Assembly: GCA_025384855.1 (NCBI GenBank) | Contig: JALAHT010000001.1 | Span: 561,064-625,063 of the forward strand | Direction: 5' to 3' | Origin: Luteirhabdus salina | GTDB lineage: Bacteria; Bacteroidota; Bacteroidia; Flavobacteriales; Flavobacteriaceae | DNA length: 64,000 nucleotides | Shown: piece after piece, positions 36,047 to 64,000 of the stretch | How positions within the stretch are numbered: position 1 is the first letter of the stretch | Layout: each line of letters starts with the position of its first letter | Translations under genes and position numbers: made by a program | Notes under the pieces: model-generated | What the model was told of the DNA's origin: nothing | Seen by the model: the letters and a program-made list of their open reading frames with translations, nothing else | Databases searched by the model: none

Positions 36047-36075
36047 TTCAAAAAGCCTCTCAAAAAGAGAGGCTT
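36047..36075 (+). terminator. Intrinsic terminator: perfect 9-bp stem (aagcctctc / gagaggctt) with AAAAA loop, then TTTACTT
   Basis: Read directly. Lies between the XRE gene and the tRNA fragment and could act bidirectionally. Confidence 0.75.
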
Positions 36076-36081
36076 TACTTG

Positions 36082-36140
36082 TGCGGCTGAAGGGAGTCGA
36101 ACCCCCACGCCTTGCGGCACTAGATCCTAAGTCTAGCGTA
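36082..36140 (-). other. Partial tRNA-Leu(TAG): 3' fragment (anticodon arm, long variable arm, T-arm, 3' acceptor strand) with no 5' acceptor or D-arm. Interpreted as an att-site remnant at the left end of an integrated element.
   Basis: Minus-strand reading: CTAGA-CTTAGGA-TCTAG (anticodon loop with UAG), GCCGCAAGGC variable stem-loop, GGGGG-TTCGACT-CCCTT T-arm, CAGCCGC 3' acceptor plus discriminator A. The complementary 5' acceptor GCGGCTG is absent downstream. Confidence 0.6.
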
Positions 36141-36235
36141 CATTTGCCTAAATAACACCAAAGTCACTCATTTTCAATTGATTATAAAAAACATCATTTT
36201 CTTTGATATCATCTAATATCAATTGATTTCAGCAT

Positions 36236-36341
36236 TTGTTGTACCTATGTTGTACCTAAAAAGTCTAATAAATTTGTATCTTTATCGAAAGTTTACAACA
36301 AAAATTAAGCTCAAAATACAATGTTGTACCTATGTTGTACC
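36236..36341 (+). promoter_or_regulatory. Two copies of the 21-bp direct repeat tgttgtacctatgttgtacct (four TGTTGTACCT units), 85 bp apart, upstream of the integrase. Candidate arm-type recombinase/regulator binding sites.
   Basis: Exact repeats at 36236-36256 and 36321-36341. Confidence 0.55.
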
Positions 36342-36374
36342 TGATTTGACTTTCGTACTCAAAACAGGTCAATT

Positions 36375-37589
36375 ATGTCGTCAAATGCAAAAATAGTACT
36401 ACGCAAAAAACCGAACAGTAAAGGTCTATATCCACTAGCTATTCGTATCACAAAAAATCGTCGCTCAACATACCAATATATTGGTCATTATATCGACTTA
36501 GAGGATTGGGACGAAAAAAACATTCGAGTAAAAAAATCAAATCAAAACGCAGAAAGTTTAAACAAGTTGTTATCACAAGAACTTTCTGATGCCAATAAAG
36601 CACTTATTGATTTGCAATCAGAACACAAAGATGCTTCTGCAAACCAAATCAAAAAAGAGCTATACGCATTGGGTAATACTTCTACCTTTTTTGAACTTGC
36701 CCAAGAGCATCTCAATGAATTGAAAGCTGCTGAAAAATTAAACCGCCTATCCACAGATAGTGCTTTGGTAACTTATATCTTAAAATTCAATAAATCCAAA
36801 CAACTTTCCTTTCAGGAAATCGACGAGCGTTTCCTGAAGAAATTGATGATATATCTAAAAGTTGAACATTCTCTAGCTGAAACGTCAATAATGAATATAC
36901 TGGTATTTATCCGCTTATTGTTCAATAGGGCAATAAAGCTTAAAATTGTTAGTAGGGAATTGTACCCTTTTGGTGGTGATAAGATTAAAATTAAATTTCC
37001 GGAAACAAATAAAATTGGGTTGAATATTATTGAAGTAAGAGCTATAGAGGCTCTTGATAATTTAACGTTAGCTGAAATGCACACAAGAAACGTTTGGCTT
37101 TTCAGCTTCAATTTTGCAGGAATGCGAGTTACTGATGTACTATGGACAAAGTGGTCCGATATTTATGACGGCAGACTACATTATAGAATGAATAAAAACT
37201 CGAAATTATTATCATTGAAAATACCAGATAAAGTTTTTAAAATTTTAGACTACTACAGGGACGACAAGAGATACCCAACGGATTTTGTTTTCCCTGAATT
37301 GAAAAAAGCGAATCTCGATGACGCTAAAGACATCTATAACAAAAGAAAGACAGCTACCAAAAAATTTAATGATAATCTAAAGTCTATTGCTAAAAAGGCA
37401 AAAATAGATAAGAAGGTTACTATGCACATTGCGAGGCATACTTTTGGTAACATCGCTGGTGATACCATTCACCCCTTAATGCTTCAGAAGCTATACCGCC
37501 ATAGCGATTTAAAGACAACATTAAATTATCAAGCTAATTTTATACATAAAGAAGCTGATGATGCCTTGGAAAGCGTAGTAAATTTCTGA
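36375..37589 (+). CDS. int: Tyrosine-type site-specific integrase (phage integrase family)
   Basis: C-terminal catalytic region with R…HxxR…Y (…MHIARHTFGNIAGD…LYRHSDLKTTLNYQANF). N-terminal SAM-like/core-binding domain. Confidence 0.85.
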   Translation: MSSNAKIVLRKKPNSKGLYPLAIRITKNRRSTYQYIGHYIDLEDWDEKNIRVKKSNQNAESLNKLLSQELSDANKALIDLQSEHKDASANQIKKELYALGNTSTFFELAQEHLNELKAAEKLNRLSTDSALVTYILKFNKSKQLSFQEIDERFLKKLMIYLKVEHSLAETSIMNILVFIRLLFNRAIKLKIVSRELYPFGGDKIKIKFPETNKIGLNIIEVRAIEALDNLTLAEMHTRNVWLFSFNFAGMRVTDVLWTKWSDIYDGRLHYRMNKNSKLLSLKIPDKVFKILDYYRDDKRYPTDFVFPELKKANLDDAKDIYNKRKTATKKFNDNLKSIAKKAKIDKKVTMHIARHTFGNIAGDTIHPLMLQKLYRHSDLKTTLNYQANFIHKEADDALESVVNF

Positions 37590-37699: not shown

Positions 37700-38119
37700 A
37701 TGAATCAATATATTCACAAATCAATGGCGGTTTTTATGGCAGCTGTAGTCTTTATGACTACGATGTCATTTACTATTGATATGCATTACTGTGGAGATTC
37801 TTTGGTAGATTTTTCATTCGTTCAGAAAGCGAAAACTTGCGGGATGGAAAAAGCTCAGGCTACTACAAGTTGTGAGAACCCAACCCTTTCAGAAAAAACG
37901 TGTTGTACGGATAAGCAAGTCGTTAAAGAAGGAAAGGATGATTTAAAAGTTTCATTTGACCAACTTACCTTAGAGCAACAAGTCTTTGTTGCCTCATTTA
38001 CATATTCGTATTTAAGTCTTTTTGAAGGAATTGAATCTAACGATGTTCCTTTCATCGATTACCCGCCCCCCTTTGTCAAACGGGATGTGCAAGTGCTGCA
38101 CCAGACTTTTTTAATTTGA
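37700..38119 (+). CDS. Hypothetical secreted Cys-containing protein
   Basis: Signal-peptide-like N-terminus and several Cys (CGDS, CGMEK, CEN, CC). Confidence 0.45.
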   Translation: MNQYIHKSMAVFMAAVVFMTTMSFTIDMHYCGDSLVDFSFVQKAKTCGMEKAQATTSCENPTLSEKTCCTDKQVVKEGKDDLKVSFDQLTLEQQVFVASFTYSYLSLFEGIESNDVPFIDYPPPFVKRDVQVLHQTFLI

Positions 38120-43277: not shown

Positions 43278-43841
43278 ATGGTAAAAGATTTTTACATAAA
43301 AAATATGGTGTGCGACCGTTGCATCAAGGTGTTGAAGGATGAACTGAAAGCAAATCACATCAAGTTGCATCAGATTGAATTGGGTCGGTTACAGCTGGAC
43401 ATTGATGCCCTTGATTTGGACAAACTCGAAGCGGTATTGAAAGAAAACGGTTTTTCGCTCATCGATAGTACGGAAGATAAGTTGACCGAACGGGTAAAGG
43501 TTGAACTCATAAAAACGATGCAGGAACTACCGATTCAACTTGATAAAAAACTGTCCGAACATTTGGTGGATGCCTTGGGACACGAGTATTCAAAAATCAG
43601 CAAGGTATTCTCTTTTACGCAAGGTGTTACTATTGAAAAATATTTCATCAAACTAAAAATTGAAAAGGTAAAAGAACTCGTACAGGCTAACGAACACAAT
43701 TTTACTGAAATGGCGCAACTGCTCGATTACAGTCACATCAACCATTTGAGCGGACAGTTTAAAAGCGAGACGGGAATGAGCCTTTCGACCTATAAATCCC
43801 AACAAAAGAATTTTAGGAATTCGTTGGACAAAATTATGTAG
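43278..43841 (+). CDS. AraC-family transcriptional regulator with N-terminal HMA-like metal-binding domain
   Basis: N-terminal MxCxxC (NMVCDRC). C-terminal AraC HTH (…MAQLLDYSHINHLSGQFKSETGMSLSTYKS). Confidence 0.7.
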   Translation: MVKDFYIKNMVCDRCIKVLKDELKANHIKLHQIELGRLQLDIDALDLDKLEAVLKENGFSLIDSTEDKLTERVKVELIKTMQELPIQLDKKLSEHLVDALGHEYSKISKVFSFTQGVTIEKYFIKLKIEKVKELVQANEHNFTEMAQLLDYSHINHLSGQFKSETGMSLSTYKSQQKNFRNSLDKIM

Positions 43842-43923
43842 ATAAGAACCAAAATTATGACACAAGCTGTTGATTTACAGCAGTAATTTCCCTTGGAAAT
43901 TAAATGTTTAATTAAAAACAAAA

Positions 43924-44247
43924 ATGATGAGAAACTCTGAATTAATTAGCGCCCTTGGCAATTGTATCAACCATTGTAACTATTGTGCAGATGCCTGTTT
44001 AGAAGAAGAAAATGTAAAAATGATGGTCAATTGTATTCGTACAGACCGCGTCTGTGCAGAAGTATGCAGCACTTTGGCTCAGGTGTTGGCAACCAAGTTT
44101 GAAGACGTAGATGATTTGGTACGCTACTGTCAAAAAGTTTGTAACGCTTGTGCAGATGAATGTTCACAGCACGACCACAAACACTGTCAAGATTGTGCAG
44201 AAGCCTGTAGAAAATGTGCTGAGGCCTGTGAAAGCTATTTAGCATAA
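43924..44247 (+). CDS. Four-helix-bundle copper-binding protein (Csp/DUF326 family)
   Basis: Repeated CxxxC motifs along predicted helices (CINHCNYCADAC, CAEVCS, CQKVCNACADEC, CQDCAEACRKCAEAC). Confidence 0.8.
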   Translation: MMRNSELISALGNCINHCNYCADACLEEENVKMMVNCIRTDRVCAEVCSTLAQVLATKFEDVDDLVRYCQKVCNACADECSQHDHKHCQDCAEACRKCAEACESYLA

Positions 44248-44294
44248 AACAAAACTGATTTTACAGACCATACATTTAATTTAAAATAGCACTT

Positions 44295-47636: not shown

Positions 47637-47653
47637 CCCTTAAATATATAATT

Positions 47654-48724: not shown

Positions 48725-48744
48725 ATAATCTAAAAATTAAAATT

Positions 48745-52931: not shown

Positions 52932-52942
52932 AATTAGTGGCT

Positions 52943-53236
52943 ATGAAAACATTCGATACCCTTTCCCAAACAATGACCCACTTGCAAAAGAAAGGTTATA
53001 CCTACGATTTTAATTTATGTTCGGGACACATTGAATGTAATGCGCTAAAGCTAAAATTACATCCAGAGGATTTCGATGTAGATGAGATGCATCGTTTTGA
53101 AGGAATGAGCAGTACCGATGACAACAGCGTTCTTTACGCTATTTCATCAAAAAATGGAATTAAAGGATTATTGGTCGATGCCTATGGTGTCTATGCAGAG
53201 AATATTTCTGAAGCAATGCGAAAAAAATTAAGATAA
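52943..53236 (+). CDS. Small hypothetical protein (about 97 aa), recurrent in Bacteroidota metal-resistance islands
   Basis: Start chosen at MKTFDTL. No motif recognised. Confidence 0.45.
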   Translation: MKTFDTLSQTMTHLQKKGYTYDFNLCSGHIECNALKLKLHPEDFDVDEMHRFEGMSSTDDNSVLYAISSKNGIKGLLVDAYGVYAENISEAMRKKLR

Positions 53237-53237
53237 A

Positions 53238-55754
53238 ATGAAACATACCTATCACATACACGGAATGACCTGCAAAGGTTGCCAGAATCACGTCGAAAAA
53301 ACCCTTTCCAATATAGAGGGAGTAACCAGTGCATCAGTCAATTTGGAAAAGGCAGAAGCCATCATAGAAATGGATAATCACATTCCTATCGAGACTTTTC
53401 AAAAGATATTAAATGATGACGGCGGTACGTATTCTATCCACAAACCAGGCGAGCATCATCATAAAGAGGATTCCGCTTCCGCTAAAAAGCAAAAACCCAA
53501 AGATAAGGGAACGGGAACGTTCTATTGCCCAATGCACTGCGAGGGAGACAAGACCTATGAAAGGCCGGGCGATTGCCCCGTCTGCGGGATGGATTTGGTC
53601 GAGGAACAAAATTTAACCGCCACCACTTCCGAGCAATGGACCTGCCCTATGCACCCTGAAGTTGTTAAAGACGGACCTGGAGACTGTCCTATTTGTGGGA
53701 TGGACCTGGTGCCGATGAAACCCGATATTTCCGCAGAAGAAAAGACCTATAAAAAATTGCTCAAAAAGTTCTGGATAGCAGTCGCTTTTACATTGCCTAT
53801 ATTTTTCATAGCAATGTCAGAAATGCTGTCAAAAAATCCCTTGGAAAGTATTCTCGAAATAAAATACTGGAACTGGATTCAGTTTGTGCTTTCCCTTCCC
53901 GTTGTTTTCTATGCCACGTGGATGTTTTTTGAACGTGCGTATCGCAGTATCGTCACCTGGAATCTAAATATGTTTACGCTCATTGGGATAGGTACCGGAG
54001 TGGCTTGGGTTTTTAGTGTTTTCGGGATGCTGTTTCCGCAGCTTTTCCCCCAAGAATTTTTAACCGAATCAGGAACTGTATTTGTTTATTTTGAGGCGAC
54101 CACAGTTATTTTAACGCTCGTGCTACTCGGACAGGTACTTGAGGCCCGTGCGCACAGTAAGACCAATTCTGCGGTCAAGGAACTCTTAAAACTTGCGCCC
54201 AATAAAGCTATTAAGGTAGTCGATGGAAATGAAGAAGAAGTTTCCATCGACCAGATAGAAAAAGGAGATATATTACGGGTGAAACCAGGAGATAAAATTC
54301 CTGTTGATGGCAAAATTACCGAAGGAGAAACTACTGTAGATGAATCGATGATTTCGGGAGAGCCCATTCCAGTTAATAAATCTGTAGATGACAAAGTAAG
54401 TAGCGGTACCATAAACGGCAACCAGTCGTTCTTGATGGAGGCCGAAAAAGTAGGTAGCGACACATTACTTTCCCAAATCATCAAAATGGTAAATGATGCC
54501 AGTCGCAGTCGTGCCCCTATCCAGAAATTGGCCGATACGGTTTCAGGCTATTTTGTGCCAATAGTCATATTTATTGCGGTCATAACCTTTATCGTTTGGG
54601 CAATCTGGGGTCCGGAACCCGCTTATGTCTATGGGTTTGTGAATGCCATTGCCGTATTGATTATCGCCTGTCCGTGTGCATTAGGATTGGCAACACCGAT
54701 GTCCGTTATGGTGGGTGTTGGTAAAGGCGCTCAGAATGGCGTACTTATCAAGAATGCCGAAGCCCTTGAAAAAATGGACAAGGTAGATACCCTTATTGTT
54801 GATAAGACCGGAACAATTACCGAGGGAAAACCCACGGTGGAGAAGGTAGGTTCTTTTGATGATAAACAATTTAGCGAAAGCGAAATTCTACATTTTATTG
54901 CATCTCTAAACAGTTCCAGCGAGCATCCATTGGCCGAAGCTACTGTGAAATACGGAAAGCAGCAGAATGTTGAACTATCAAAAACCGAAAATTTCAGCGC
55001 AATAACGGGAAAAGGCGTAGAAGGTACTGTTGATGGCAAGAAGCTCGATTTAGGAAACGATAGGATGATGGAATATGCCAAGGCTACTATTTCATCTGCT
55101 ATGAAAGATGAAGCACAATCCTTTCAAAAACAAGGGAAAACCGTTTCGTATTTAGCTATTGATGGTAAGGTTTCAGGCTATGTCGTGATAGGCGACAAAA
55201 TCAAGAAAACAAGCGCCAAGGCCATCAAGGAATTACAGGACAAGGGGATTGCCGTGATAATGCTCACGGGCGATAACCACGATACAGCACAGGCCGTAGC
55301 ATCAGAGCTAAACCTTGCTGACTTTAAAGCCAGTATGTTACCTGAAAATAAGTTGCAGGAAGTTGAAAAATTGCAGAATGAAGGGAAGGTGGTCGCAATG
55401 GCAGGTGATGGCATCAATGATGCACCAGCACTGGCAAAAAGTAATGTGGGAATCGCTATGGGGACAGGTACAGATGTAGCCATAGAAAGTGCGATGATAA
55501 CCTTGGTAAAAGGTGATTTGCACGGTATCGTAAAAGCTAAAAATTTAAGCCATATGGTTATGCGAAATATCAAGCAGAATCTCTTTTTCGCTTTCATCTA
55601 TAATACCTTAGGTGTGCCCATTGCGGCTGGAGTCCTATTTCCGTTTTTCGGTTTGTTATTATCACCTATGATTGCAGCTTTGGCAATGAGTTTTAGTTCC
55701 GTATCGGTTATTGCAAATGCCTTACGATTACGTACCAAAAAAATCGATAGCTAA
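53238..55754 (+). CDS. copA: Copper-translocating P1B-type ATPase with N-terminal HMA and two CPxCG metal-binding modules
   Basis: HMA GMTCKGCQNH. Two CP(M)H…GDCPxCGMDL modules. TM CPC motif (ACPCALGLATP). DKTGT phosphorylation site. GDGINDAP hinge. Confidence 0.9.
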   Translation: MKHTYHIHGMTCKGCQNHVEKTLSNIEGVTSASVNLEKAEAIIEMDNHIPIETFQKILNDDGGTYSIHKPGEHHHKEDSASAKKQKPKDKGTGTFYCPMHCEGDKTYERPGDCPVCGMDLVEEQNLTATTSEQWTCPMHPEVVKDGPGDCPICGMDLVPMKPDISAEEKTYKKLLKKFWIAVAFTLPIFFIAMSEMLSKNPLESILEIKYWNWIQFVLSLPVVFYATWMFFERAYRSIVTWNLNMFTLIGIGTGVAWVFSVFGMLFPQLFPQEFLTESGTVFVYFEATTVILTLVLLGQVLEARAHSKTNSAVKELLKLAPNKAIKVVDGNEEEVSIDQIEKGDILRVKPGDKIPVDGKITEGETTVDESMISGEPIPVNKSVDDKVSSGTINGNQSFLMEAEKVGSDTLLSQIIKMVNDASRSRAPIQKLADTVSGYFVPIVIFIAVITFIVWAIWGPEPAYVYGFVNAIAVLIIACPCALGLATPMSVMVGVGKGAQNGVLIKNAEALEKMDKVDTLIVDKTGTITEGKPTVEKVGSFDDKQFSESEILHFIASLNSSSEHPLAEATVKYGKQQNVELSKTENFSAITGKGVEGTVDGKKLDLGNDRMMEYAKATISSAMKDEAQSFQKQGKTVSYLAIDGKVSGYVVIGDKIKKTSAKAIKELQDKGIAVIMLTGDNHDTAQAVASELNLADFKASMLPENKLQEVEKLQNEGKVVAMAGDGINDAPALAKSNVGIAMGTGTDVAIESAMITLVKGDLHGIVKAKNLSHMVMRNIKQNLFFAFIYNTLGVPIAAGVLFPFFGLLLSPMIAALAMSFSSVSVIANALRLRTKKIDS

Positions 55755-56464
55755 TGGTCAATAGAAAAACAGCAAAATGGATTCGAAAAGCCCACCGCTA
55801 CTTGGGTATCTTCCTGGGTATTCAGTTCCTGATGTGGACGATTAGCGGGATGTATTTTAGCTGGACGGATATTGACGAGATACACGGCGACCATTTCAAA
55901 AAAGAGATTCCTGAACAAACTGCATTTTCAGGTTTGGTGGGAAGTTCTCAACTAAATATTCAGGAACCGATTAAGTCATTAGAATTACTTGAAATAGCGG
56001 ATGCGCCCTATTATTGGATTAATGAGACTGTGCTTTATAATGCACTTACAGGAACAAAGAAAGACGAGCTCACAGAACAAGAAGCAATCAAAGTGTCAGA
56101 ACGCTATATGTTGGCAGATTTAGAATTTGACCAAATACGAAGAATTGAATCTGTTGGCGACCACCACGAGTACCGCGGACGACCATTACCTGCTTATGAG
56201 ATTTCATATAAAACCGATGAAAATTTAAAAGCCTACGTGGCGATTGAGAATGGTGCTTTTCAAACAGTACGTCATCGCGATTGGCGCTGGTTCGATTTTT
56301 TATGGATGACCCACACAATGGATTATCAGGGAAGGGATAACTTCAACACTATTGTTTTAAGAGCTTTTTCACTGTTAGGCTTGATAACAGTATTGAGTGG
56401 CTTTATCCTTTGGTATATTTCATCACCAACTCTTAGAAAATTAATTAAAAACAATCGTAAATAA
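55754..56464 (+). CDS. PepSY-associated TM helix protein
   Basis: N-terminal WIRKAHRYLGIFLGIQFLMWTISG motif. C-terminal TM. Confidence 0.65.
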   Translation: MVNRKTAKWIRKAHRYLGIFLGIQFLMWTISGMYFSWTDIDEIHGDHFKKEIPEQTAFSGLVGSSQLNIQEPIKSLELLEIADAPYYWINETVLYNALTGTKKDELTEQEAIKVSERYMLADLEFDQIRRIESVGDHHEYRGRPLPAYEISYKTDENLKAYVAIENGAFQTVRHRDWRWFDFLWMTHTMDYQGRDNFNTIVLRAFSLLGLITVLSGFILWYISSPTLRKLIKNNRK

Positions 56465-56485
56465 GTAACATTAAAATCAACTATT

Positions 56486-56974
56486 ATGGAAAATTCAATG
56501 GAAAACAAAAAGAAAAATCAATACACAAAATTTGTAGGAATGCTCGCTGCATCCTTCGTGGCTATGTACATCACAATGTACCTAAACACTTATGAGTGGG
56601 ACCACGTATGGTTCAGCCTAACCCGCTTTTATATGGTCTGTTTAGGGATTGCAGCGATGGCCATTATTATGTTTGTTGCAATGCGCGGGATGTACAAAAA
56701 CAAGAAAAAGAATATCGCAATTGTTTTAGGAAGTATAGTATTGTTTGTAAGTGCTTTGACCTTGGTGCGTGAACAAAAATCAACTGTGGGCGATGTGCTC
56801 TGGATGAAAGCAATGATACCGCACCATTCAATAGCAATTTTAACAAGTAAAAGAGCAGATATCAAAGACCCTGAAGCTAAAAAATTGGCAGAAGAAATTA
56901 TTGAGGCACAATTACGGGAAATCGCACAGATGAAAAAAATAATTTACAGATTAGAAAACGAAAAAGAGGAATAG
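56486..56974 (+). CDS. DUF305 domain protein
   Basis: MIPHHSIAI…EIIEAQLREIAQM matches the DUF305 conserved His-rich core. TM N-terminus. Confidence 0.7.
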   Translation: MENSMENKKKNQYTKFVGMLAASFVAMYITMYLNTYEWDHVWFSLTRFYMVCLGIAAMAIIMFVAMRGMYKNKKKNIAIVLGSIVLFVSALTLVREQKSTVGDVLWMKAMIPHHSIAILTSKRADIKDPEAKKLAEEIIEAQLREIAQMKKIIYRLENEKEE

Positions 56975-57005
56975 TACGAGTACTAATTTCTATAAAATTA
57001 TTATT

Positions 57006-58748
57006 ATGAAAAAGAACATTATTTATATAAGTATTGCAGTTATCGCAGGCTTATTGGCAGGATATCTCATATTCGGAAATTCAGGAACAGAACAAAATGC
57101 TGTTAAGGATTTATCCGATATGTCAGATACCCACGACCATTCCGGCGAGTCGGAAAACCAAATGTGGACCTGCTCAATGCACCCACAGATTATGCAACCC
57201 GAACCAGGCGACTGCCCTATATGTGGAATGGACTTGATACCTGCCGAATCTGGTGCCGATGGCCTTGCAATGAATGAGATTAAAATGACAGAGAACGCAA
57301 TGGCACTGGCCAACATTCAAACTACTATAGTGGGTAATGGTACAATGTCTGAAGCCGATGGGATGATTTCACTTTCGGGCAAAATCGATACCAACGAAGA
57401 AAACAATGCCGTACAAGCAAGCTATTTTGATGGGCGTATCGAACGTTTGAATGTCAATTATGAAGGCCAAAAAGTAAATCGTGGTCAATTGCTGGCCACC
57501 ATTTATGCGCCAAATTTGGTCGCTGCACAGCAAGAATTGCTCACAACAGCTTCATTAAAAGAATCGCAGCCTGAACTGTATAAAGCAGTTCGAAATAAAT
57601 TGAAAAATTGGAAGCTTTCCGATAACCAGATTAATGCCATAGAATCCTCTGGAAATGTACGCGATAATTTTCCTGTATATGCCACTGTTTCAGGAACGGT
57701 TTCAGAAGTGATGGCACGTGAAGGCGACTATGTAAAACAAGGTCAGCCTATTTTGAAGGTAAGCAATTTGAATTCGGTTTGGGCAGAATTTGATGCCTAT
57801 GAAAATCAAATTTCAGATTTAAAAGTAGGTCAGAAAATAAAGGTAGTAACCAATGCCTATACCAATAAAGAATTTGACGCCACGATTTCGTTTATTGACC
57901 CCATACTTAACAATGCAACAAGAACGGTTACCGTTAGAGCAACACTTAAAAATACAGAAGACCTATTTAAACCAGGTATGTTTGTAACTGGCAAACTCAA
58001 AGGGGAAATGAAGATGAACAACCAAGTTATTACAGTTCCTGCAAGTGCCGTAATGTGGACAGGCGAACGCTCATTGGTCTATATAAAAACCAACCCCAAC
58101 GAACCTGTTTTTGAAATGCGTGAAGTAACCATAGGAAATCGAAATGGCGAAAATTATACTGTGATAGAAGGCTTACAGACTGGCGACGAGATTGTGACCA
58201 ACGGAACCTTTACAGTAGACGCAGCAGCCCAGCTACAAGGCAAAAAATCTATGATGAATCAGGGAAAAGAACAGGCACCTGAGATGCCTATGTCTCAAAT
58301 GAAAATGGAATTTACAGAGAATTTTCAAAAGCAATTTAAAAAGGCCCTCAAGCCTTATTTGCAGATGAAAGATGCATTGGTAGCGAGCGATGCCAGTCAA
58401 GTTTCCGCTTTTGCGAAAGCGACATCAACATTTTTAAAATCCGCTGATATTAAAAGTCTCGGTAGTATGGAACAATCACATATTAAGAAAAGTATCGAAA
58501 TGCTCGATGCCATTGCGGCGAATGACAACTTGGAAAATCAACGTGACCATTTTGTAATATTAAATGAAAATATGGTGCCCATTGCGATGAGTGTAAATGG
58601 AACTGATGCGATACTATACGTTCAGAAATGCCCAATGGCCAATAAAAATAAAGGCGCGGTCTGGCTAAGCACGGAAGAAGAAATTCGTAACCCTTATTAT
58701 GGCGATGCGATGTTGACGTGTGGTAGTGTGATTGAGGAAATAAAATAG
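57006..58748 (+). CDS. cusB: CusB-like efflux RND periplasmic adaptor (MFP) with N-terminal CPxCGMDL metal-binding module and C-terminal DUF3347-like domain
   Basis: MWTCSMHPQIMQPEPGDCPICGMDL. Biotinyl-lipoyl/beta-barrel MFP core. C-terminal …YVQKCPMANKNKGAVWLSTEEEIRNPYYGDAMLTCG. Confidence 0.8.
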   Translation: MKKNIIYISIAVIAGLLAGYLIFGNSGTEQNAVKDLSDMSDTHDHSGESENQMWTCSMHPQIMQPEPGDCPICGMDLIPAESGADGLAMNEIKMTENAMALANIQTTIVGNGTMSEADGMISLSGKIDTNEENNAVQASYFDGRIERLNVNYEGQKVNRGQLLATIYAPNLVAAQQELLTTASLKESQPELYKAVRNKLKNWKLSDNQINAIESSGNVRDNFPVYATVSGTVSEVMAREGDYVKQGQPILKVSNLNSVWAEFDAYENQISDLKVGQKIKVVTNAYTNKEFDATISFIDPILNNATRTVTVRATLKNTEDLFKPGMFVTGKLKGEMKMNNQVITVPASAVMWTGERSLVYIKTNPNEPVFEMREVTIGNRNGENYTVIEGLQTGDEIVTNGTFTVDAAAQLQGKKSMMNQGKEQAPEMPMSQMKMEFTENFQKQFKKALKPYLQMKDALVASDASQVSAFAKATSTFLKSADIKSLGSMEQSHIKKSIEMLDAIAANDNLENQRDHFVILNENMVPIAMSVNGTDAILYVQKCPMANKNKGAVWLSTEEEIRNPYYGDAMLTCGSVIEEIK

Positions 58749-58775: not shown

Positions 58776-59402
58776 ATGAACAAAGCACTGCAGTTACACT
58801 ATGGTTCCCAATTTGAACAAGCACTGTTAGAGGAAATAAATCAGGTAGCAACCTTTATGGAAGTTCCGGAAGGACAAGATTTAATAAGACCAGGACAATT
58901 TATAAAGTCTATGCCTTTATTGTTATCAGGCAGTATAAAAATTATGCGTCCAGATGCCGATGGAGAAGAGTTGTTACTATACCATCTTGAGAAAGGCGAT
59001 ACCTGTGCAATGACAATGACCTGCTGTATGGGAAATACGAAAAGTGAAATACACGCAGTTACCGAGACCCCTACAAAGCTCTTGATGATTCCTATAGGTA
59101 AAATGGAAGAATGGTCAAGAAAATACAAAACTTGGCGAAACTTTGTATTTGCAAGTTATCACGCACGTATGATGGAAATGCTCGAAAGCATTGATAACAT
59201 TGCCTTCAATAATATGGATGAACGTTTGGAAAATTATTTAAATAATAAAATTGAATTACTAAACAGTAAACACATATATACAACACACAAAGAAATTGCA
59301 GCAGACCTTCATACCAGCCGTGTGGTTATTTCCAGACTGCTTAAAAAAATGGAAAAGGACCTTAAAATAAAATTACACCGCAGTTTTATCGAAGTACTGT
59401 AA
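58776..59402 (+). CDS. Crp/Fnr-family transcriptional regulator
   Basis: cNMP-binding beta-roll. C-terminal HTH (HKEIAADLHTSRVVISRLLKKME). Confidence 0.8.
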   Translation: MNKALQLHYGSQFEQALLEEINQVATFMEVPEGQDLIRPGQFIKSMPLLLSGSIKIMRPDADGEELLLYHLEKGDTCAMTMTCCMGNTKSEIHAVTETPTKLLMIPIGKMEEWSRKYKTWRNFVFASYHARMMEMLESIDNIAFNNMDERLENYLNNKIELLNSKHIYTTHKEIAADLHTSRVVISRLLKKMEKDLKIKLHRSFIEVL

Positions 59403-59462
59403 CATCGGTTACAAACATTTAATATACTGACAGGTACATTTGTCTCATAACTGGTTTGACAA

Positions 59463-60266
59463 ATGGAAATCGTAGAAATTTTAGGATATATAGGGGCGCT
59501 GCTCATAGGGCTCGTTTTAGGTTTAATTGGCGGCGGTGGCTCAATCCTTACTGTTCCCATTTTGGTATACGCACTCTCTCTCAATCCCGTAATCGCTACA
59601 GCCTACTCATTGTTTGTCGTGGGTGCAACTTCACTTGTTGGAGCATTTAAAAATATGATGAAGGGAATGGTAGATTTTAAAACTGCCATCATCTTCGCCA
59701 TACCTGCATTTATCGCAGTATATCTTACTAGAGCCTTTTTAATTCCTGCCATACCCGAAGAGCTTTTTCAAATAGGCGATTTTATGGTCACTAAGAATCT
59801 GGCTATTATGCTGTTTTTTGCTATCATAATGCTATTGGCTTCCGTTTCGATGATACGAAATAAACGTAAGGAAACGGATGAGGAAACGGAAATCACCTAT
59901 AATTATCCACTTATCATAGTTGAAGGTATTATTGTGGGAACAATTACAGGTATTGTAGGTGCTGGCGGTGGGTTCTTGATTATTCCGGCTTTGGTTCTGT
60001 TGGCAAAGTTGCCTATGAAAAAAGCGGTGGCCACTTCACTTTTAATTATTGCAATTAAATCTTTGATCGGGTTTTTGGGCGATGTTCAAAATTTAGATAT
60101 TGATTGGCCATTCCTGCTTATTTTTACAGGAATTTCAATAGTGGGTATTTTTATTGGAATATGGCTAAATAAATTTATCGATGGAAAAAAATTAAAGAAA
60201 GGATTTGGCTGGTTCGTGTTGGTAATGGGTATCTATATTATCTATAAGGAAATTGCCAAGCAATAA
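59463..60266 (+). CDS. TauE/SafE-family sulfite/anion exporter
   Basis: Duplicated 4-TM repeats with GGGGS/GAGGG motifs (LGLIGGGGSILTVPIL; GIVGAGGGFLIIPAL). Confidence 0.8.
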   Translation: MEIVEILGYIGALLIGLVLGLIGGGGSILTVPILVYALSLNPVIATAYSLFVVGATSLVGAFKNMMKGMVDFKTAIIFAIPAFIAVYLTRAFLIPAIPEELFQIGDFMVTKNLAIMLFFAIIMLLASVSMIRNKRKETDEETEITYNYPLIIVEGIIVGTITGIVGAGGGFLIIPALVLLAKLPMKKAVATSLLIIAIKSLIGFLGDVQNLDIDWPFLLIFTGISIVGIFIGIWLNKFIDGKKLKKGFGWFVLVMGIYIIYKEIAKQ

Positions 60267-60268
60267 CT

Positions 60269-61168
60269 ATGGGAAAATACATTGAAATAATAAAACAATC
60301 TTTTTCAGGGTATTACAACTACCTAATTCAAGAAATAACCAATCCCTCGTGGACCAATTATTTTTATTGGCTCATAGGGTTGTCTTTACTTGTATTTCTA
60401 TTGGAAATTATCATCCCTTGGCGTAAAAAGCAACCTGTTTTGAGAAAGGGATTTTTTCTGGATGCCTTTTATATTCTTTTTAATTTCTTCCTGTTTTCCT
60501 TAATTGGTTACAATGCACTCTCTAATGTTGGTGTAGAATTATTTAATGATTTCTTGGGCCTTTTTGGCATTACAAATATAGTAGCCATAGAGGTGCAGAC
60601 ACTTCCGGTATGGTCGCAACTTTTAATAATGTTCATCATTGCAGATTTTGTGCAATGGAATGTTCATAGGATGCTGCACAGAATTCCATGGATGTGGAAA
60701 TTCCATAAAATTCATCATAGCGTTAAGGAAATGGGTTTTGCCGCACAATTTCGGTTTCATTTTTTGGAGACCATCGTGTATAAGTCCATACAGTACATAC
60801 CACTGGCAATGATAGGTTTCGGTATCGAACAGTTTTTTGTGGTACATATGTTTGCCGTTTTTGTAGGGCATCTCAACCACGCAAACCTTGACTGGAGCTA
60901 CGGAAAGCTGGGCTACATATTCAACAATCCACGTATGCATATTTGGCACCATTCTAAAGAGCTTCCCAAAAGCCATCCCTATGGTATGAATTTCGGACTT
61001 ACCTTGAGTGTCTGGGATTATTTATTTAATACTGCCTATGTACCCAAAAGTGGTCGAGATATTGTATTAGGTTTTGAAAACGACACGAATTTTCCAAGGA
61101 CGTTTTGGGAACAGCTGAAGTATCCGTTTGTTCGAAATACAGATAATTCAAAAAAACATAACTCATAA
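60269..61168 (+). CDS. Fatty-acid hydroxylase / sterol desaturase superfamily membrane protein
   Basis: His boxes HRMLH, HKIHH, HIWHH. Confidence 0.75.
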   Translation: MGKYIEIIKQSFSGYYNYLIQEITNPSWTNYFYWLIGLSLLVFLLEIIIPWRKKQPVLRKGFFLDAFYILFNFFLFSLIGYNALSNVGVELFNDFLGLFGITNIVAIEVQTLPVWSQLLIMFIIADFVQWNVHRMLHRIPWMWKFHKIHHSVKEMGFAAQFRFHFLETIVYKSIQYIPLAMIGFGIEQFFVVHMFAVFVGHLNHANLDWSYGKLGYIFNNPRMHIWHHSKELPKSHPYGMNFGLTLSVWDYLFNTAYVPKSGRDIVLGFENDTNFPRTFWEQLKYPFVRNTDNSKKHNS

Positions 61169-61252
61169 GGCTTCACCATTTGACTAATCTGTTGTTATGT
61201 ATCAAAGGTTACAGAAAATGCCGTAGACCTTTTTTAATTTTACAAAAAAACA

Positions 61253-62587
61253 GTGATTATGAATATCAAACAATTTGAATACAAGCCACTTGCCCACTAC
61301 TCTTATGCAATTGTAAGCAATGGTAAGATGGCGGTAATAGACCCAGAACGCAACCCTGAGCAGTATTACGCTTTCGCGAAAGCTAACGATGTAGAAATCG
61401 TTGCAGTAATCGAAACACATCCACACGCTGATTTTGTAAGCTCGCATCTCGAAATCCATAAAAAGACAGGCGCTGTAGTGTATACCAGTACAAAAGTAGG
61501 TGCAGACTACCCGCATCAATCCTTTGATGAAGGTGCAAGTATAAAATTAGGAACAGTTATACTTAAGGCAATAAATACCCCAGGGCATTCGCCAGACAGT
61601 ATAACCGTAGTGGCAACTGAGGGCGAGGAAACGGTATTATTTACTGGTGACACTCTTTTCATAGGCGACGTAGGCCGTCCAGATTTACGTGAGAAGGCGG
61701 GTAATATGAAAGCCAAACGAGAAGAACTGGCCGAAATGATGTACGAAACCATTACAGATAAATTCAAGAATTTACCTGATGATGCTTTGGTTTACCCAGC
61801 ACACGGTGCAGGTACCCTTTGCGGAAAGAGTATAGGTAATGATTCTAGCAGTACCCTAGGCAATGAGCGTATGGGCAATTGGGCATTTAAAGAGCAGTCC
61901 AAAGAAGAATTTATAGACACCTTACTTGATGGTCAACCCTTTATTCCTTCCTATTTTGGTTATAATGTGGATGTCAATAAAACTGGTGCAGCAGATTTGC
62001 AACCTTCCATTGAAAACATTCCATTCACTGAAAATACAGTTGCGGAAGGACTTATAGTTGATACGCGAGACGAAGCCACATTTAAAAATGGACATTTGAA
62101 GGGAAGCATTAACATTCAGGCTGTATCAGAAAACGCGAAGTTCGAAACCTGGTTGGGTTCTATTATTGAGCCTAGGGAAAAGTTTACCTTGGTTATAGAC
62201 AAGGTCGAAAACAAGGATAGTTTATTACACCGTGTGGCAAAAATAGGCTACGAAAAACAGCTGAAACAAGTTATCACCCTTTCTCAAGAAAATCTGGTAA
62301 AAACCGAAAAACTGGACTTGTCTGACTTTAAGAACAATCCTAAAAAGTACACCATAGTTGATATACGCAATACAAGCGAGGTAGAAGAAGAAAAGTTTTT
62401 CGACAGCGCCATTTCACATCCTCTTAATGAGCTGAGAGAAACTGCTAATGATATCCCTACAGATAAACCTATTGTAGTGCACTGTGCAGGCGGTTACAGA
62501 AGTGCTGCAGGAAGTAGCATAATTAAAAATAAAATTTCTGGAACTAAAGTATATGACCTAAGCGATGATATCGAAAAATTTAAATAA
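61253..62587 (+). CDS. MBL-fold metallo-hydrolase fused to rhodanese domain (persulfide-dioxygenase-like)
   Basis: MBL motif ETHPHADF. C-terminal rhodanese active-site loop VVHCAGGYRS. Confidence 0.8.
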   Translation: MIMNIKQFEYKPLAHYSYAIVSNGKMAVIDPERNPEQYYAFAKANDVEIVAVIETHPHADFVSSHLEIHKKTGAVVYTSTKVGADYPHQSFDEGASIKLGTVILKAINTPGHSPDSITVVATEGEETVLFTGDTLFIGDVGRPDLREKAGNMKAKREELAEMMYETITDKFKNLPDDALVYPAHGAGTLCGKSIGNDSSSTLGNERMGNWAFKEQSKEEFIDTLLDGQPFIPSYFGYNVDVNKTGAADLQPSIENIPFTENTVAEGLIVDTRDEATFKNGHLKGSINIQAVSENAKFETWLGSIIEPREKFTLVIDKVENKDSLLHRVAKIGYEKQLKQVITLSQENLVKTEKLDLSDFKNNPKKYTIVDIRNTSEVEEEKFFDSAISHPLNELRETANDIPTDKPIVVHCAGGYRSAAGSSIIKNKISGTKVYDLSDDIEKFK

Positions 62588-62593
62588 TTTTCT

Positions 62594-63814
62594 ATGGATA
62601 TTCGTTTAGGGTTAAGGGAGAACTGGAAACAGTTTTCTCTTTTAATTTTGGTAAGCGCCTTTGTTGGCGGTATGGTTGGATTGGAACGCAGCATATTCCC
62701 TGAATATGCACAGAAGGTTTTTGGGATTGAATCAAAAACAGCAGTACTTTCATTCATAACAGCATTCGGAATTACAAAGGCTCTGACCAATTACTTTACC
62801 GGGCGCCTGGCAAATCTAATAGGTAGAAAAAATTTATTGATTTTTGGATGGTTATTCGCCATTCCTGTTCCTTTTATTTTAATGAATGTAAGCAATTGGA
62901 ACTGGGTGATAGTTGCCAATCTTCTTCTAGGAATCAATCAAGGTCTGACCTGGAGCAGTACCGTGGTAATGAAAATTGATTTGGTAGGGGAGAAAAATCG
63001 CGGACTGGCTATGGGGCTCAATGAATTTGCAGGTTACTTTGCCATCGGTATAGTAGCATTCTTATCAGGTTATGTCGCGGACCAATATGGTATAACCCCA
63101 TATCCGTTTTACATAGGAATTGTCATATCAATTATAGGACTTTTATTGAGCCTCTTCTTTATAAATGATACCGGTAAGTTTGTGAACCTAGAAAGTAAAA
63201 CTGATGATTCTACCTCACTTAAAAATGTTTTTTGGGAAACCACCTTAAAAGATAAAACCCTTAGTTCTGTGAGCCAAGCAGGGCTGGTAAACAACCTTAA
63301 TGATGGAATGATATGGGGGCTATTGCCAATGATTTTGCTTCAGTCCAACTACGATTCTCAAAATATAGGGATTATAACCGCTATCTACCCTACGGTTTGG
63401 GGATTGGGACAATTATTTACGGGCAGGATGTCAGATGTATATTCTAAAAAAGCAATGTTATTCTGGGGAATGCTTTTGCAAGGTATTGCGATTTTAATTT
63501 TACCCTTCATTACAGAGAGCTACATAATTCTAGTTGTCTTAACTTTTACGTTGGGGATTGGTACTGCACTGGTCTACCCTACTTTCTTGTCTACAATTGC
63601 AGCTGCTACGAACCCATCCCAACGTGCAGAAAGCATAGGAACTTTTAGATTGTGGCGAGATTTGGGGTATGCTATTGGAGCAGTAGTTTCCGGCATTATC
63701 GCAGATTTATTTGGTGTGTCGATGGCAATACTGACTATAGGAGGCATAACCATACTATCGGCAATGGTAATCAAATATAGGATGCCACAACTTAAGTTAA
63801 TAAAGAATTTTTAA
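62594..63814 (+). CDS. MFS transporter
   Basis: 12 predicted TM helices. MFS motif A-like GRLANLIGRKN. Confidence 0.8.
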   Translation: MDIRLGLRENWKQFSLLILVSAFVGGMVGLERSIFPEYAQKVFGIESKTAVLSFITAFGITKALTNYFTGRLANLIGRKNLLIFGWLFAIPVPFILMNVSNWNWVIVANLLLGINQGLTWSSTVVMKIDLVGEKNRGLAMGLNEFAGYFAIGIVAFLSGYVADQYGITPYPFYIGIVISIIGLLLSLFFINDTGKFVNLESKTDDSTSLKNVFWETTLKDKTLSSVSQAGLVNNLNDGMIWGLLPMILLQSNYDSQNIGIITAIYPTVWGLGQLFTGRMSDVYSKKAMLFWGMLLQGIAILILPFITESYIILVVLTFTLGIGTALVYPTFLSTIAAATNPSQRAESIGTFRLWRDLGYAIGAVVSGIIADLFGVSMAILTIGGITILSAMVIKYRMPQLKLIKNF

Positions 63815-63881
63815 AGTTCTTTTGGCGACCCTTGCTACAAACTATGAAATTTTTAAAAATGATAATTAACAAATAAAATTT

Positions 63882-64000
63882 ATGTGTATGAATTGGATAT
63901 ATGAACCGTGGCCGTGGTATATCGCAGGACCACTTATTGCACTTGTGATGTTGTTATTGTTGCTCGTTGGAAAGCAATTTGGTATGTCCTCAAACTTACG
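63882..64000 (+). CDS. YeeE/YedE-family (sulfur-compound transport) protein, N-terminal fragment running off the window
   Basis: MCMNWIYEPWPWYIAGPLIALVMLLLLLVGKQFGMSSNL matches the YeeE/YedE N-terminal consensus (W..GP..G…GK.FG.SS). Not in the supplied ORF track because it is truncated. Confidence 0.5.
   Translation, partial: MCMNWIYEPWPWYIAGPLIALVMLLLLLVGKQFGMSSNL

Follow-up and report, generated by a model that had tools for sequence, protein, structure and literature searches.

A Flavobacteriaceae island that probably splits the host tRNA-Leu(UAG) gene and carries its own replacement

By the textbook rule, islands that integrate into tRNA genes rebuild their target, and island finders of the Islander type depend on this rule. 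In Luteirhabdus salina, a DNA stretch of 64,000 nucleotides (the window) contains only the 3' part of a tRNA-Leu gene beside a tyrosine integrase gene, which raises the question of where the rest of this tRNA is and what took its place. A sequence-only reading of the window had seen here an integrated mobile element that comprises all DNA to the right of the fragment and that duplicated the tRNA 3' end on insertion. What it had observed was confirmed, and so was the mobile element; the duplication and regeneration of the tRNA was not. We consider it likely that positions 36124-64000 are the integrase-proximal 28 kb of a marine Flavobacteriaceae island of at least 59 kb, probably conjugative, that splits tRNA-Leu(UAG) and bears a replacement tRNA. 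The features at the junction are as follows:

36047..36079, minus strand: terminator-like hairpin and T-run of the host tRNA-Leu gene (host DNA; read from the sequence)
36080..36123, minus strand: host-derived 3' part of tRNA-Leu(UAG), comprising the 3' strand of the anticodon stem, the variable arm, the T arm and the acceptor 3' strand (partial Rfam tRNA match)
36124..36134, no strand assigned: 11-bp common core ATCCTAAGTCT (AGACTTAGGAT on the tRNA strand), anticodon loop and flanking bases
36135..36374, plus strand: P arm of the element attachment site, identical beside a different host flank
36237..36257, plus strand: arm-type repeat 1 (TGTTGTACCTATGTTGTACCT), putative binding site of the integrase N-terminal arm domain
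36322..36342, plus strand: arm-type repeat 2, exact copy of the same 21-mer
36375..37589, plus strand: tyrosine integrase with arm-binding domain (Pfam Arm-DNA-bind_5, Phage_int_SAM_5, Phage_integrase)

The tRNA-Leu(UAG) fragment, correctly recognized as a 3' half in the earlier reading, extends over positions 36080-36139 of the minus strand. ARAGORN called no tRNA in the whole window, and the Rfam tRNA model yielded a sub-threshold match at 36082-36147 on the minus strand (22.6 bits vs a gathering score of 29). The fragment retains an anticodon arm (loop CUUAGGA, anticodon UAG), a long variable arm, a T arm and the acceptor strand of the 3' side; it has no D arm, and the acceptor strand of the 5' side stays unpaired. 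The 55-nt 3' half is identical to intact tRNA-Leu(TAG) genes at 26 loci. It is followed by the hairpin AAAGCCTCTC-TTTTT-GAGAGGCTTT and TTGAA, which a consensus terminator scan did not call at 36047-36079.

The common core was deduced by comparing the attR sites of two hosts with the attL sites of L144 and of 28 marine metagenome loci, and with a relative in Altibacter HG106, which diverges immediately beyond the core. Accordingly, attP and attB have only the 11 bp AGACTTAGGAT in common, with the anticodon loop at their center. This comparison places strand exchange somewhere within 36124-36134; the sequence-only reading had put the left junction near 36140, rightly at the tRNA fragment but not at the exact position. 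The first five nucleotides of the P arm (ACGCT on the tRNA strand) are still tRNA-like. Over its full length the P arm is 100% identical in L005-L011 despite their different host flank, and 78% identical to that of the Altibacter HG106 relative. The four direct repeats noticed earlier are exact copies of TGTTGTACCT at 36237, 36248, 36322 and 36333, which together make up the two 21-mers, and no further exact copy exists within the 64 kb. When one mismatch was allowed, TGTTGTACCT had 10 matches vs 3.2 expected, a number reached in none of 100 shuffles. Repeat 1 is kept at 21 of 21 positions in the P arm of L046, itself 78% identical, and both 21-mers together at 42 of 42 positions in a P arm otherwise 78% identical. 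The far end of the element again has the same 20-mer, in L144 (9563-9583), in L129 and in those metagenome loci that are long enough. Such repeats are probable binding sites of the integrase N-terminal arm domain.

The integrase gene itself, predicted as such in the earlier reading, is an intact ORF whose translation contains the catalytic R...HxxR...H...Y residues. It adjoins the attachment site about 240 bp from the core, at one end of the element, as in Islander-type islands. Altibacter lentus encodes an identical protein (WP_034260728.1), and relatives with 90% and 67.5% identity adjoin tRNA-Leu remnants in two isolate genomes, Altibacter sp. HG106 and Allomuricauda sp. CP2A.

From 36124 rightward, the window has 99.98-100% DNA identity to contigs of another host species: 100% across 11,466 bp and 99.98-100% further right, in L001 and L128 as far as position 64000. 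L005-L011 encode the identical integrase next to a different left flank (PLP decarboxylase, GDPD and an HI0933-like protein) and a different tRNA-Leu 3' half. The flank proteins of the two hosts are only 79%, 61%, and 41% identical, and the terminator hairpin of the window is wholly unlike its counterpart in the other host. Between the tRNA remnants of the window and of L005, which both lie beside the same element, there are host-specific differences, the last of them at 36121. Since these remnants differ by host just outside the core, they derive from the host and are no repeat carried by the element. The G+C content is about 0.37-0.41 within the element vs 0.41-0.44 to the left of it. Judged by its near-identity between hosts, the island is a recently mobile element.

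The far junction was obtained from the other host and, in addition, from 28 marine metagenome loci; all of these loci begin it, the whole junction being present only in those that are long enough. Its order is an orphan host 5' half, a spacer of about 30-34 nt, a complete tRNA-Leu(UAG), a terminator, the arm repeat, ParB and DUF932. In L144 and L145, which stem from the same samples as L001 and L009, an M20 peptidase gene precedes the host 5' half GCGGGCG...CCAGACTTAGGAT, a 34-nt spacer, the complete tRNA-Leu(TAG) and its terminator; the arm repeat, ParB_N and, later, DUF932 come after. An orphan 5' half, a non-tRNA spacer and a separate complete tRNA are also found in L146 and L152. The metagenome loci have at least 12 distinct host 5' halves, each cut after AGACTTAGGAT, and the one in L154 and L157 (GCGGCTG...CTAGA) is complementary to the window fragment. 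With the exception of L151, what comes after the host 5' half in the other host and the 28 loci is TAAACC... or TTAACC... rather than the 3' half of a tRNA. The 5' half of L144 is undetected by Rfam and ARAGORN, and neither junction (3' side in the window, 5' side in L144) has a functional host tRNA.

The two halves fit each other. Joined to the 3' half of L005, the 5' half of L144 gives a sequence identical to the intact tRNA-Leu of eight reference genomes, and the tRNAs reconstructed from rejoined halves form all cloverleaf pairs. A comparison with relatives, as proposed in the earlier reading, did reveal the empty site: in L035, an intact tRNA-Leu is flanked by PLP decarboxylase and HI0933 to one side and by M20 and YjdM to the other, and M20 is the upstream neighbor of the tRNA-Leu target in about 70 reference loci. 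Separate contigs, none of which spans both ends, supplied the integrase side and the ParB side; the two were linked by the complementary tRNA halves, by joint occurrence in at least four samples, by the arm repeat common to both and by the synteny of the empty site. The earlier view that the element continues past 64000 and exceeds 28 kb proved right, as at least 59 kb are documented. By analogy, we assume that the far end of the window genome, which lies outside the window, is the same as in the other host.

The complete tRNA-Leu(TAG) of the element (L144 9420-9502, a copy outside the window) scores 59.2 bits against the Rfam tRNA gathering score of 29. Three main variants exist, in which every pair is kept and seven pairs are altered on both sides, and none of 500 shuffles matched the observed score. 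With such compensatory changes the element tRNA is well formed and looks functional. Over 55 nt it shares only 90.9% identity with the window fragment, differing at 5 of 55 positions, so that a search for an intact tRNA matching the 3' 55 nt of the fragment, as the sequence-only reading had advised, would have failed despite a real element. Likewise, the duplicated 3' end and regenerated tRNA that it had postulated are at odds with the mere 11 common bp, the orphan 5' half and the separate complete tRNA of the element. All but one of the reference genomes that matched the tRNA pattern, complete chromosomes included, have one match each, a count that is blind to copies with other 3' halves. The element tRNA would be needed, and its expression would plausibly start at the host tRNA promoter captured about 84 nt upstream.

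Could this nevertheless be a classical tRNA island, in which an element-borne copy of the tRNA 3' part regenerates the gene on the far side, and the displaced 3' fragment by the integrase is a direct repeat? Islands in tRNA genes usually regenerate their target, and the anticodon loop is a common sublocation of the crossover (PMC4383910). Moreover, the far end of the window genome lies outside the window, and in L151 the element tRNA continues a host 5' end in register, a fusion that resembles a classical regenerated tRNA; the window genome could carry this form at its far end. However, the acceptor stem of L151 has a C-A mismatch, as expected of a secondary recombinant, which this locus looks like. 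Furthermore, L144, L145, L146, L152 and the 28 metagenome loci have a cut 5' half, a spacer of about 30-34 nt and a separate tRNA, only 11 bp are shared, and the remnants vary by host immediately outside the core. Of the features that define Islander islands, a tRNA fragment that is contiguous with the crossover and regenerates the tRNA was absent from the other host and the 28 loci (L151 excepted), and the fragment is no long duplicate of a regenerated gene, with 11 bp shared and 5 of 55 positions differing in a host-dependent manner. We therefore regard a classical island as unlikely.

It also appears improbable, somewhat more so than a classical island, that the locus is the dead, fixed remnant of an old island, with the tRNA fragment a decaying pseudogene and the integrase and repeats inactive. 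For the window species itself, neither an excised form nor an empty site nor the far end was seen, and the HTH gene of its left flank is carried by just two other contigs, both of which end at or near the junction. This reading conflicts with the 100% identity of element DNA between hosts whose flank proteins are 41-79% identical, with the intact integrase ORF and catalytic residues, with the two perfect arm repeats, and with a tRNA 3' half that is undecayed and identical to live tRNA genes.

The junction anatomy in the other host and the metagenomes, the fitting halves, the empty site and the identity of the element in two host species were observed directly. For the favored reading, a splitting island with its own tRNA, we propose the following mechanism. 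A lambda-type tyrosine integrase with an arm-binding domain would recombine attP with the host tRNA-Leu(UAG) gene at its anticodon loop, aided by 21-bp arm repeats that flank the core on both sides. As attP and attB share only the 11 bp, the host tRNA would be cut in two and not rebuilt. Its 3' half and terminator would stay beside the integrase, as the window fragment, and its 5' half would be left at the far end, adjoining the conserved M20 peptidase gene, while the complete tRNA-Leu(UAG) and terminator of the element, about 34 nt inside this end, would take over the lost function. On precise excision, both host halves would be rejoined. Whether widespread conjugative-type islands of marine Flavobacteriaceae generally integrate in this tRNA-dependent manner, destroying the only tRNA-Leu(UAG) of the host and rescuing it with their own copy, is in our view an evenly balanced proposition. 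If so, transcription of the element tRNA, which lies only about 34 nt from the crossover, would start from the host tRNA promoter that the element has captured, and the body of the host tRNA would not need to match, as the 11-bp anticodon-loop core would suffice. This would also explain the near-identical metal-resistance cargo in different genera, and the element tRNA might serve as a landing site for more copies, accounting for the tandem junctions present in L159 and L179.

How the island moves is suggested by its relatives. L177, which has the same far-end architecture, encodes a MobB relaxase (NF041495, 410 bits vs a cutoff of 200) together with a MobC-like coupling protein with T4CP domains, and RteC is present in another relative. 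The parts of this exact element that were read, toward its two ends, contain neither a relaxase nor a coupling protein nor a tra gene, and none of the loci compared extends into a tra cluster. Based on these MobB/MobC-like genes in relatives, the element is probably an ICE and presumably transferred by conjugation. That it is a prophage with tRNA-dependent lysogeny in the strict sense is highly improbable: the same integration logic is known from temperate actinobacteriophages (PMC10865867), but the approximately 59 kb of element sequence read contain no capsid, tail, terminase or lysis genes, the far end has ParB_N and DUF932, relatives have MobB and MobC, and close relatives of the integrase were absent from IMG/VR, as were any matches from a plasmid search.

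The closest known mechanism is the tRNA-dependent lysogeny of actinobacteriophages, described for Fionnbharth/K4 and cluster L and also suggested for the Lactobacillus prophage Lj965 (Guerrero-Bustamante and Hatfull, 2024; PMC10865867). In these phages, the need for the phage tRNA was demonstrated genetically; the behavior was previously unrecognized, and the authors left its frequency elsewhere open (PMC10865867). In both systems, the tyrosine integrase has an arm-binding domain, arm-type sites lie to either side of the core, and the common core of only about 10 bp is in a host tRNA gene that is not rebuilt. In contrast to the phages, the island is a non-phage element of at least 59 kb with metal resistance, ParB/DUF932 and Mob genes in relatives, it resides in Bacteroidota and targets tRNA-Leu(UAG), and its tRNA lies inside attP about 34 nt from the crossover, after integration just downstream of the host tRNA promoter. 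Islander class 'A' comprises classical tRNA-gene islands with an anticodon-loop crossover (PMC4383910). These share with our island the tyrosine integrase, the crossover centered on the anticodon loop with the stem as inverted repeat, and a displaced tRNA fragment at one end, but have a contiguous tRNA 3' part and a regenerated gene instead of two orphan halves and a whole gene brought along.

Among the ICEs of Bacteroidota, ICEEaII/III of Elizabethkingia, ICECspPOL2 of Chryseobacterium (10.1101/402107; PMC8694125) and the CTnDOT type are likewise large, tRNA-linked and equipped with a tyrosine integrase, and relatives of our element have RteC, MobB and MobC-type genes. The published ICEEaII/III and ICECspPOL2 types, however, insert at the tRNA 3' end with direct repeats (e.g., 18 bp in tRNA-Glu) and leave the tRNA intact; splitting and replacement of the tRNA, unlike in our island, is unreported for published ICEs of Flavobacteriaceae and Weeksellaceae (10.1101/402107; PMC8694125). 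In ICEMh1/ICEPmu1 of Pasteurellaceae, an 11-bp repeat corresponds to the anticodon loop of tRNA-Leu, and, besides a disrupted copy at one end and a full-length copy at the opposite end, "a third disrupted copy upstream of the full-length" one is mentioned in passing (PMC6861422). As far as the description in that paper goes, this layout matches our island, but the hosts are Proteobacteria, the target is tRNA-Leu(CAA), a XerCD-like pair was proposed, and the authors assumed tRNA regeneration (PMC6861422).

The splitting of a host tRNA by an element that brings its own replacement has so far been described for a few phages only, and our data indicate the same logic in a large, probably conjugative non-phage element of a different phylum, in many marine metagenomes and several genera. 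With its junction sequences, core, arm sites and tRNA variants it is a defined, testable system. That 11 conserved bases suffice might explain a broad host range, and algorithms that seek a tRNA with a matching fragment would mis-map or miss such islands.

The part of the cargo within the window is composed as follows:

37700..38119, plus strand: HYC_CC_PP / DUF8199 family protein (NCBIfam NF047658, 120 bits; PF26622 listed)
38228-41980, plus strand: CusA-type RND pump (Pfam ACR_tran, 623 bits)
41977-43275, plus strand: outer-membrane factor (Pfam OEP, 148 bits)
43278..46640, plus strand: AraC-type regulator, Csp/DUF326 copper-storage-like protein, multicopper oxidase (Pfam HTH_18, DUF326, Cu-oxidase_1/2/3)
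47100..49299, plus strand: three DUF3347 paralogues, Haem_bd protein (Pfam)
49990..53236, plus strand: Ion_trans_2 channel, SnoaL-like protein, DUF2911, ArsP_1-type permease, small ORF (Pfam)
53238..58748, plus strand: CopA-type P1B ATPase, PepSY_TM, DUF305, CusB-type adaptor fused to DUF3347 (Pfam)
58776..63814, plus strand: sulfur module of Crp-family regulator, TauE, FA_hydroxylase, MBL-rhodanese and MFS transporter (Pfam)
63888..64000, plus strand: first ~37 codons of YeeE/Sulf_transp, with the gene start at 63888 (the element runs on)

A copper/silver and sulfur cargo on the plus strand had been foreseen, and Pfam confirmed its families: CusA-type RND, OEP, Csp/DUF326, multicopper oxidase, ion channel, CopA, PepSY_TM, DUF305, CusB, Crp, TauE, MBL-rhodanese, and three DUF3347 proteins, a fourth DUF3347 domain being fused to CusB. 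The actual gene order differs from the one given, which omitted AraC, Haem_bd, SnoaL, DUF2911, the ArsP_1 permease and FA_hydroxylase and ended in YeeE; this gene is only partial in the window (about 37 codons), the last complete one being the MFS transporter (62594-63814). The domains typical of Cus/Cop systems are present, namely ACR_tran, HlyD_D23/HMBD, OEP, E1-E2_ATPase with HMA/HMBD, and Cu-oxidase_1-3 (Pfam). Going by family names, from which the metal specificity is taken, this cargo would provide copper/silver efflux and oxidation plus sulfur handling. Beyond 64000, L001 and L128 continue with YeeE, a TonB receptor, a CzcA-OEP fusion, CzcB, two P-type ATPases, Fur and Lpd. The island traces a route by which a block of about 47 kb of copper, silver, zinc/cobalt/cadmium and sulfur genes moves among Flavobacteriaceae, and its downstream CzcA-OEP protein is 99-100% identical across Altibacter, Aquimarina, Nonlabens and Gilvibacter.

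The left end of the element lies at a truncated tRNA gene. ARAGORN found no tRNA in the whole 64 kb window and no Rfam family occurs there at or above its gathering score, but a permissive Rfam search gave a sub-threshold tRNA match at 36082-36147 on the minus strand (22.6 bits versus a gathering score of 29). The partial tRNA-Leu proposed by the sequence-only reading is thereby borne out, as a 3' half only. The fragment retains an intact anticodon arm (loop CUUAGGA, anticodon UAG for leucine), long variable arm, T arm and 3' acceptor strand; it lacks the D arm, and its 5' acceptor strand is unpaired. Many reference genomes have an intact tRNA-Leu(TAG) with exactly this 55-nt 3' half, which thus is not decayed. 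A second tRNA fragment or an intact tRNA, sought inside the window, was absent. G+C drops slightly on the right side of the junction. The features of this end are:

36047-36079: hairpin followed by a T-run, downstream of the tRNA fragment, read from the sequence (no call by the consensus terminator scan)
36080-36139, minus strand: 3' half of tRNA-Leu(UAG)
36237 and 36322: two copies of the 21-mer TGTTGTACCTATGTTGTACCT, right of the tRNA fragment
right of the 21-mers: tyrosine integrase of 404 aa, with Pfam Arm-DNA-bind_5, SAM_5 and catalytic domains

The four 10-mer direct repeats noted previously are these two 21-mers, which have no further exact copy in the window. The active-site residues of the integrase are legible in its translation.

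Exactly this integrase protein, WP_034260728.1 of Altibacter lentus, is encoded on many metagenome contigs. On those of another host (L005-L011) its left neighbours are a PLP decarboxylase, GDPD and an HI0933-like protein, unlike in the window, and the tRNA-Leu 3' half and terminator also differ from the window's. From 36124 rightwards the DNA is 100% identical between the two types over the 11,466 bp available, and the remainder up to 64000 is 99.98-100% identical on the matching loci L001 and L128. Flank proteins of the window and L005 share 79% (PLP decarboxylase), 61% (HI0933) and 41% (DUF1697) identity. By these sequence comparisons, the two hosts are evidently different species and the element is recently mobile. 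A CzcA-OEP fusion protein of the cargo is 99–100% identical in Altibacter, Aquimarina, Nonlabens, and Gilvibacter and occurs in many metagenomes as well, which fits a recent spread between genera. The HTH gene of the window's left flank was found on only two other contigs, both short Logan contigs. Contig L012 ends at its position 10523 (about window 36117), inside the tRNA 3' half and just short of the crossover core, as if the assembly graph branched there; the sample may contain both occupied and empty sites.

Because the window stops inside the element, its far end was sought in copies elsewhere. A rightward walk over matching contigs reached a window-equivalent position of about 83 kb and extended the cargo to at least 47 kb, including YeeE, a TonB receptor, the CzcA-OEP fusion, CzcB, P-II, Fur, two more P-type ATPases, and Lpd, whose 97%-identical cluster representative belongs to a related but different element. 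The fusion is placed as follows:

L128 10001-14404 (window-equivalent about 68.6-73.0 kb): CzcA-type RND pump fused to an OEP-like C-terminal region, 1467 aa

The far junction itself was found on L144 and L145, which were reached via a ParB homolog (P0338) attributed to the same Altibacter lentus genome and share their samples of origin with L001 and L009; the link between the two ends of the element is drawn across separate contigs. The sequence-only reading had placed the intact tRNA-Leu beyond 64000, but L144 carries an orphan host half followed by a separate, complete element tRNA. The order is M20 peptidase, GCGGGCGTGGTGGAATTGGTAGACACGCCAGACTTAGGAT (a clean tRNA 5' half), TAAACCAAATAAAAAGTGTTAAATTGCACTTTAT, a complete 83-nt tRNA-Leu(TAG), a strong terminator, AGGTACAACATAGGTACAACA, ParB_N and, later, DUF932. 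The acceptor strand GCGGGCG and anticodon stem strand CCAGA of the orphan half complement CGCCCGC and TCTGG of the L005 remnant, and the two halves joined are base-for-base the intact tRNA-Leu(TAG) of eight reference genomes. By this layout and the rejoined halves, the host tRNA is split at the anticodon loop and not rebuilt, the element bringing a separate full gene. By analogy, we infer that the far junction of the window genome is like that of L144. It would lie at least about 30 kb to the right of the window, on the minus strand beside an M20 peptidase gene, and is predicted to read GCGGCTGTGGTGGAA(C/T)TGGTAGACACGCTAGACTTAGGAT, then TAAACCAAATAAAAAGTGTTAAATTGCACTTTAT and GCGGGTGTGGTGG...CACCCGCA, a terminator and AGGTACAACATAGGTACAACA.

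In L129, which shares the CzcA module, a tRNA-Leu(TAG) adjoins a ParB_N gene with an arm repeat close by. The full tRNA followed by ParB and CzcA on the same strand was considered as contradicting the orientation of the window element; this was rejected, since L129 holds a related element with the shared module in another position. Its orphan 5' half (5781-5842) has a palindromic insertion of about 20 nt (TCCCGATAGATATCGGGA) in the D-arm region, which suggests decay of an old orphan half.

The crossover site can be narrowed from several sides. The remnants of the two hosts differ as far as window position 36121, 36122-36123 being the next host-derived bases, and a relative in Altibacter sp. 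HG106 (integrase 90% identical, same tRNA variant as the window) departs from the window sequence directly after ...AGATCCTAAGTCT. Taken together with the far junctions, these give a common core of 11 bp, AGACTTAGGAT, at window 36124-36134. It spans the whole 7-nt anticodon loop and reaches 3 nt into the 5' strand of the stem and 1 nt into its 3' strand. The element DNA between core and integrase (P arm) is 78% identical to that of the HG106 relative, whereas the two 21-mers match at 42 of 42 positions. At the far end, the same repeat, as a 20-mer, occurs once in every relative extending far enough, its orientation relative to the tRNA unchanged. As the integrase has an arm-binding domain, the repeats are most simply read as putative arm-type sites flanking the core on both sides, as in phage lambda. 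The attP of the excised circle would be expected to read ...GTACGCTAGACTTAGGATTAAACC...

The element tRNA scores 59.2 bits against the Rfam tRNA model. In an alignment of three element tRNA variants and two reconstructed host tRNAs, all 115 of 115 pair cells hold standard pairs, and seven pairs in the acceptor, anticodon, and T stems are changed on both sides; none of 500 shuffles and no slid register comes near this result. Such a pairing pattern would be expected of a gene kept functional by selection. A sigma-70 promoter scan was set aside as evidence of expression because Bacteroidota promoters differ. The claim that the element-type anticodon stem (TCAGA/TCTGA) is absent from host tRNAs was dropped, because the search pattern by construction could not match that stem.

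In Flavobacteriaceae, tRNA-Leu(TAG) has an M20 peptidase as its upstream neighbor at about 70 reference loci, and in the relative L035 an intact tRNA-Leu is flanked by PLP decarboxylase and HI0933 to one side and by M20 and YjdM to the opposite side. The empty site sought in relatives was therefore found, both insertion flanks bracketing an unoccupied tRNA. Among 115 reference loci (GTDB representatives matching the tRNA 3'-half pattern) the tRNA is intact in 110, remnants lie beside related integrases in two (Altibacter sp. HG106 and Allomuricauda sp. CP2A), and the locus end cuts off the tRNA in three. Subsaximicrobium wynnwilliamsii (NZ_VORM01000006.1) is the only reference genome with two pattern matches, full-length tRNA-Leu(TAG) copies 3.2 kb apart (L094 7756-7838, L075 3032-3114). 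The anticodon stem of the distal copy is mismatched (CGAGA/TCTAG) and no arm repeat lies between the copies; this stretch may be left over from an old insertion.

A scan of JGI/TARA metagenomes yielded 28 loci matching the far-junction pattern. The layout begins alike in all 28 and is complete in those extending far enough: after the host half follow a spacer of about 30–34 nt, the element tRNA (three main variants), a terminator, and the arm repeat. The host 5' halves come in at least 12 versions (acceptor strands GCGGCTG, GCAGGCG, GCGGGCG, GCGGATG, and GCGGGTG), every one cut right after AGACTTAGGAT. Two loci, L154 and L157, have the same element end as L144 and a 5' half (GCGGCTG...CTAGA) complementing the window fragment (TCTAG...CAGCCGC); hosts of the window's tRNA type thus also carry this architecture. 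Some loci deviate. In L151 (ena:ERZ27299776:k119_13670, 1637-1719) the element tRNA is joined in register to a host 5' end, GCGGGCG, with orphan half and spacer deleted, and the hybrid tRNA has a C6-A67 mismatch. This recombinant mimics a classically regenerated tRNA and suggests a route that could interconvert both architectures. In L159 (about 4000-4080) and L179 (about 7750-7839) an element-type spacer precedes the orphan 5' half, and in L159 the stem of that half, ACGTCAGA, is of element type as well. It therefore seems that the tRNA of a first element served as insertion site for a second, giving a tandem array. In L165 (9195-9302) the 5' half and spacer are duplicated in tandem.

The earlier estimate of at least 28 kb for the element is borne out and rises to at least 59 kb, because L128 and L144 do not overlap; a length based on a JGI contig listed as carrying CzcA together with ParB was dropped when the two proteins were traced to different contigs. 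No phage genes were found in the approximately 59 kb of element sequence read, a plasmid collection gave no relevant match, and IMG/VR contained distant integrases only. The far end carries ParB_N and DUF932, and in the relative L177 the same far end is followed by SSB, DUF6876, a MobB-family relaxase (410 bits; cutoff 200), and a MobC-like coupling protein. GerE and RteC end the cargo of another relative. We infer an integrative element of Bacteroidota type, probably conjugative or at least mobilizable, the Mob genes being known from relatives. An island inserted in a tRNA gene normally brings a fragment that makes the gene whole again (PMC4383910), and published ICEs of Flavobacteriaceae and Weeksellaceae use the 3' ends of tRNAs as insertion sites, with direct repeats (10.1101/402107, PMC8694125). 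For actinobacteriophages, integration that leaves the target tRNA unrestored while the element supplies a cognate tRNA was reported in 2024 under the name "tRNA-dependent lysogeny"; the core is about 10 bp long, arm sites are present, and the authors raised the question of how common this is elsewhere (PMC10865867). Among 23 papers using this term, we found no application to an ICE or to Bacteroidota. ICEMh1 of Pasteurellaceae, for which a third, disrupted tRNA-Leu copy just upstream of a full-length one was mentioned uninterpreted (PMC6861422), may have the same layout as the element here.

Within the window, all genes beyond the integrase are on the plus strand. Nearly all cargo names of the sequence-only reading were confirmed by Pfam, but the final gene that is complete encodes an MFS transporter, the window edge cuts off YeeE after about 37 codons, and several genes had been missed (AraC, Haem_bd, SnoaL, DUF2911, ArsP_1 permease, and FA_hydroxylase). 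A small HYC_CC_PP/DUF8199 protein (37700-38119) is encoded directly 3' of the integrase in the window and in every L005-L011 copy. Homologs of PLP decarboxylase, HI0933, and DUF1697 are also encoded by the window, at 19515-23164. A 12.7-kb block that is missing in the other host separates the PLP decarboxylase gene from the tRNA fragment:

23273-35857: Por_Secre_tail protein, 351-aa ORF, 1630-aa DUF3686/DUF7902 AAA protein, PspA/IM30, CesT_Tir_1, HTH_3 regulator, and two proteins of 688 and 236 aa without Pfam match

A second tRNA island was rejected for this block, since the window has no further tRNA or fragment to bound it; it may be a stress or defense module. Further left, an ECF-type sigma factor, a TPR protein, and a 1074-aa TPR-CHAT (caspase-like) protein are encoded in a row at 14986-19518 on the plus strand.
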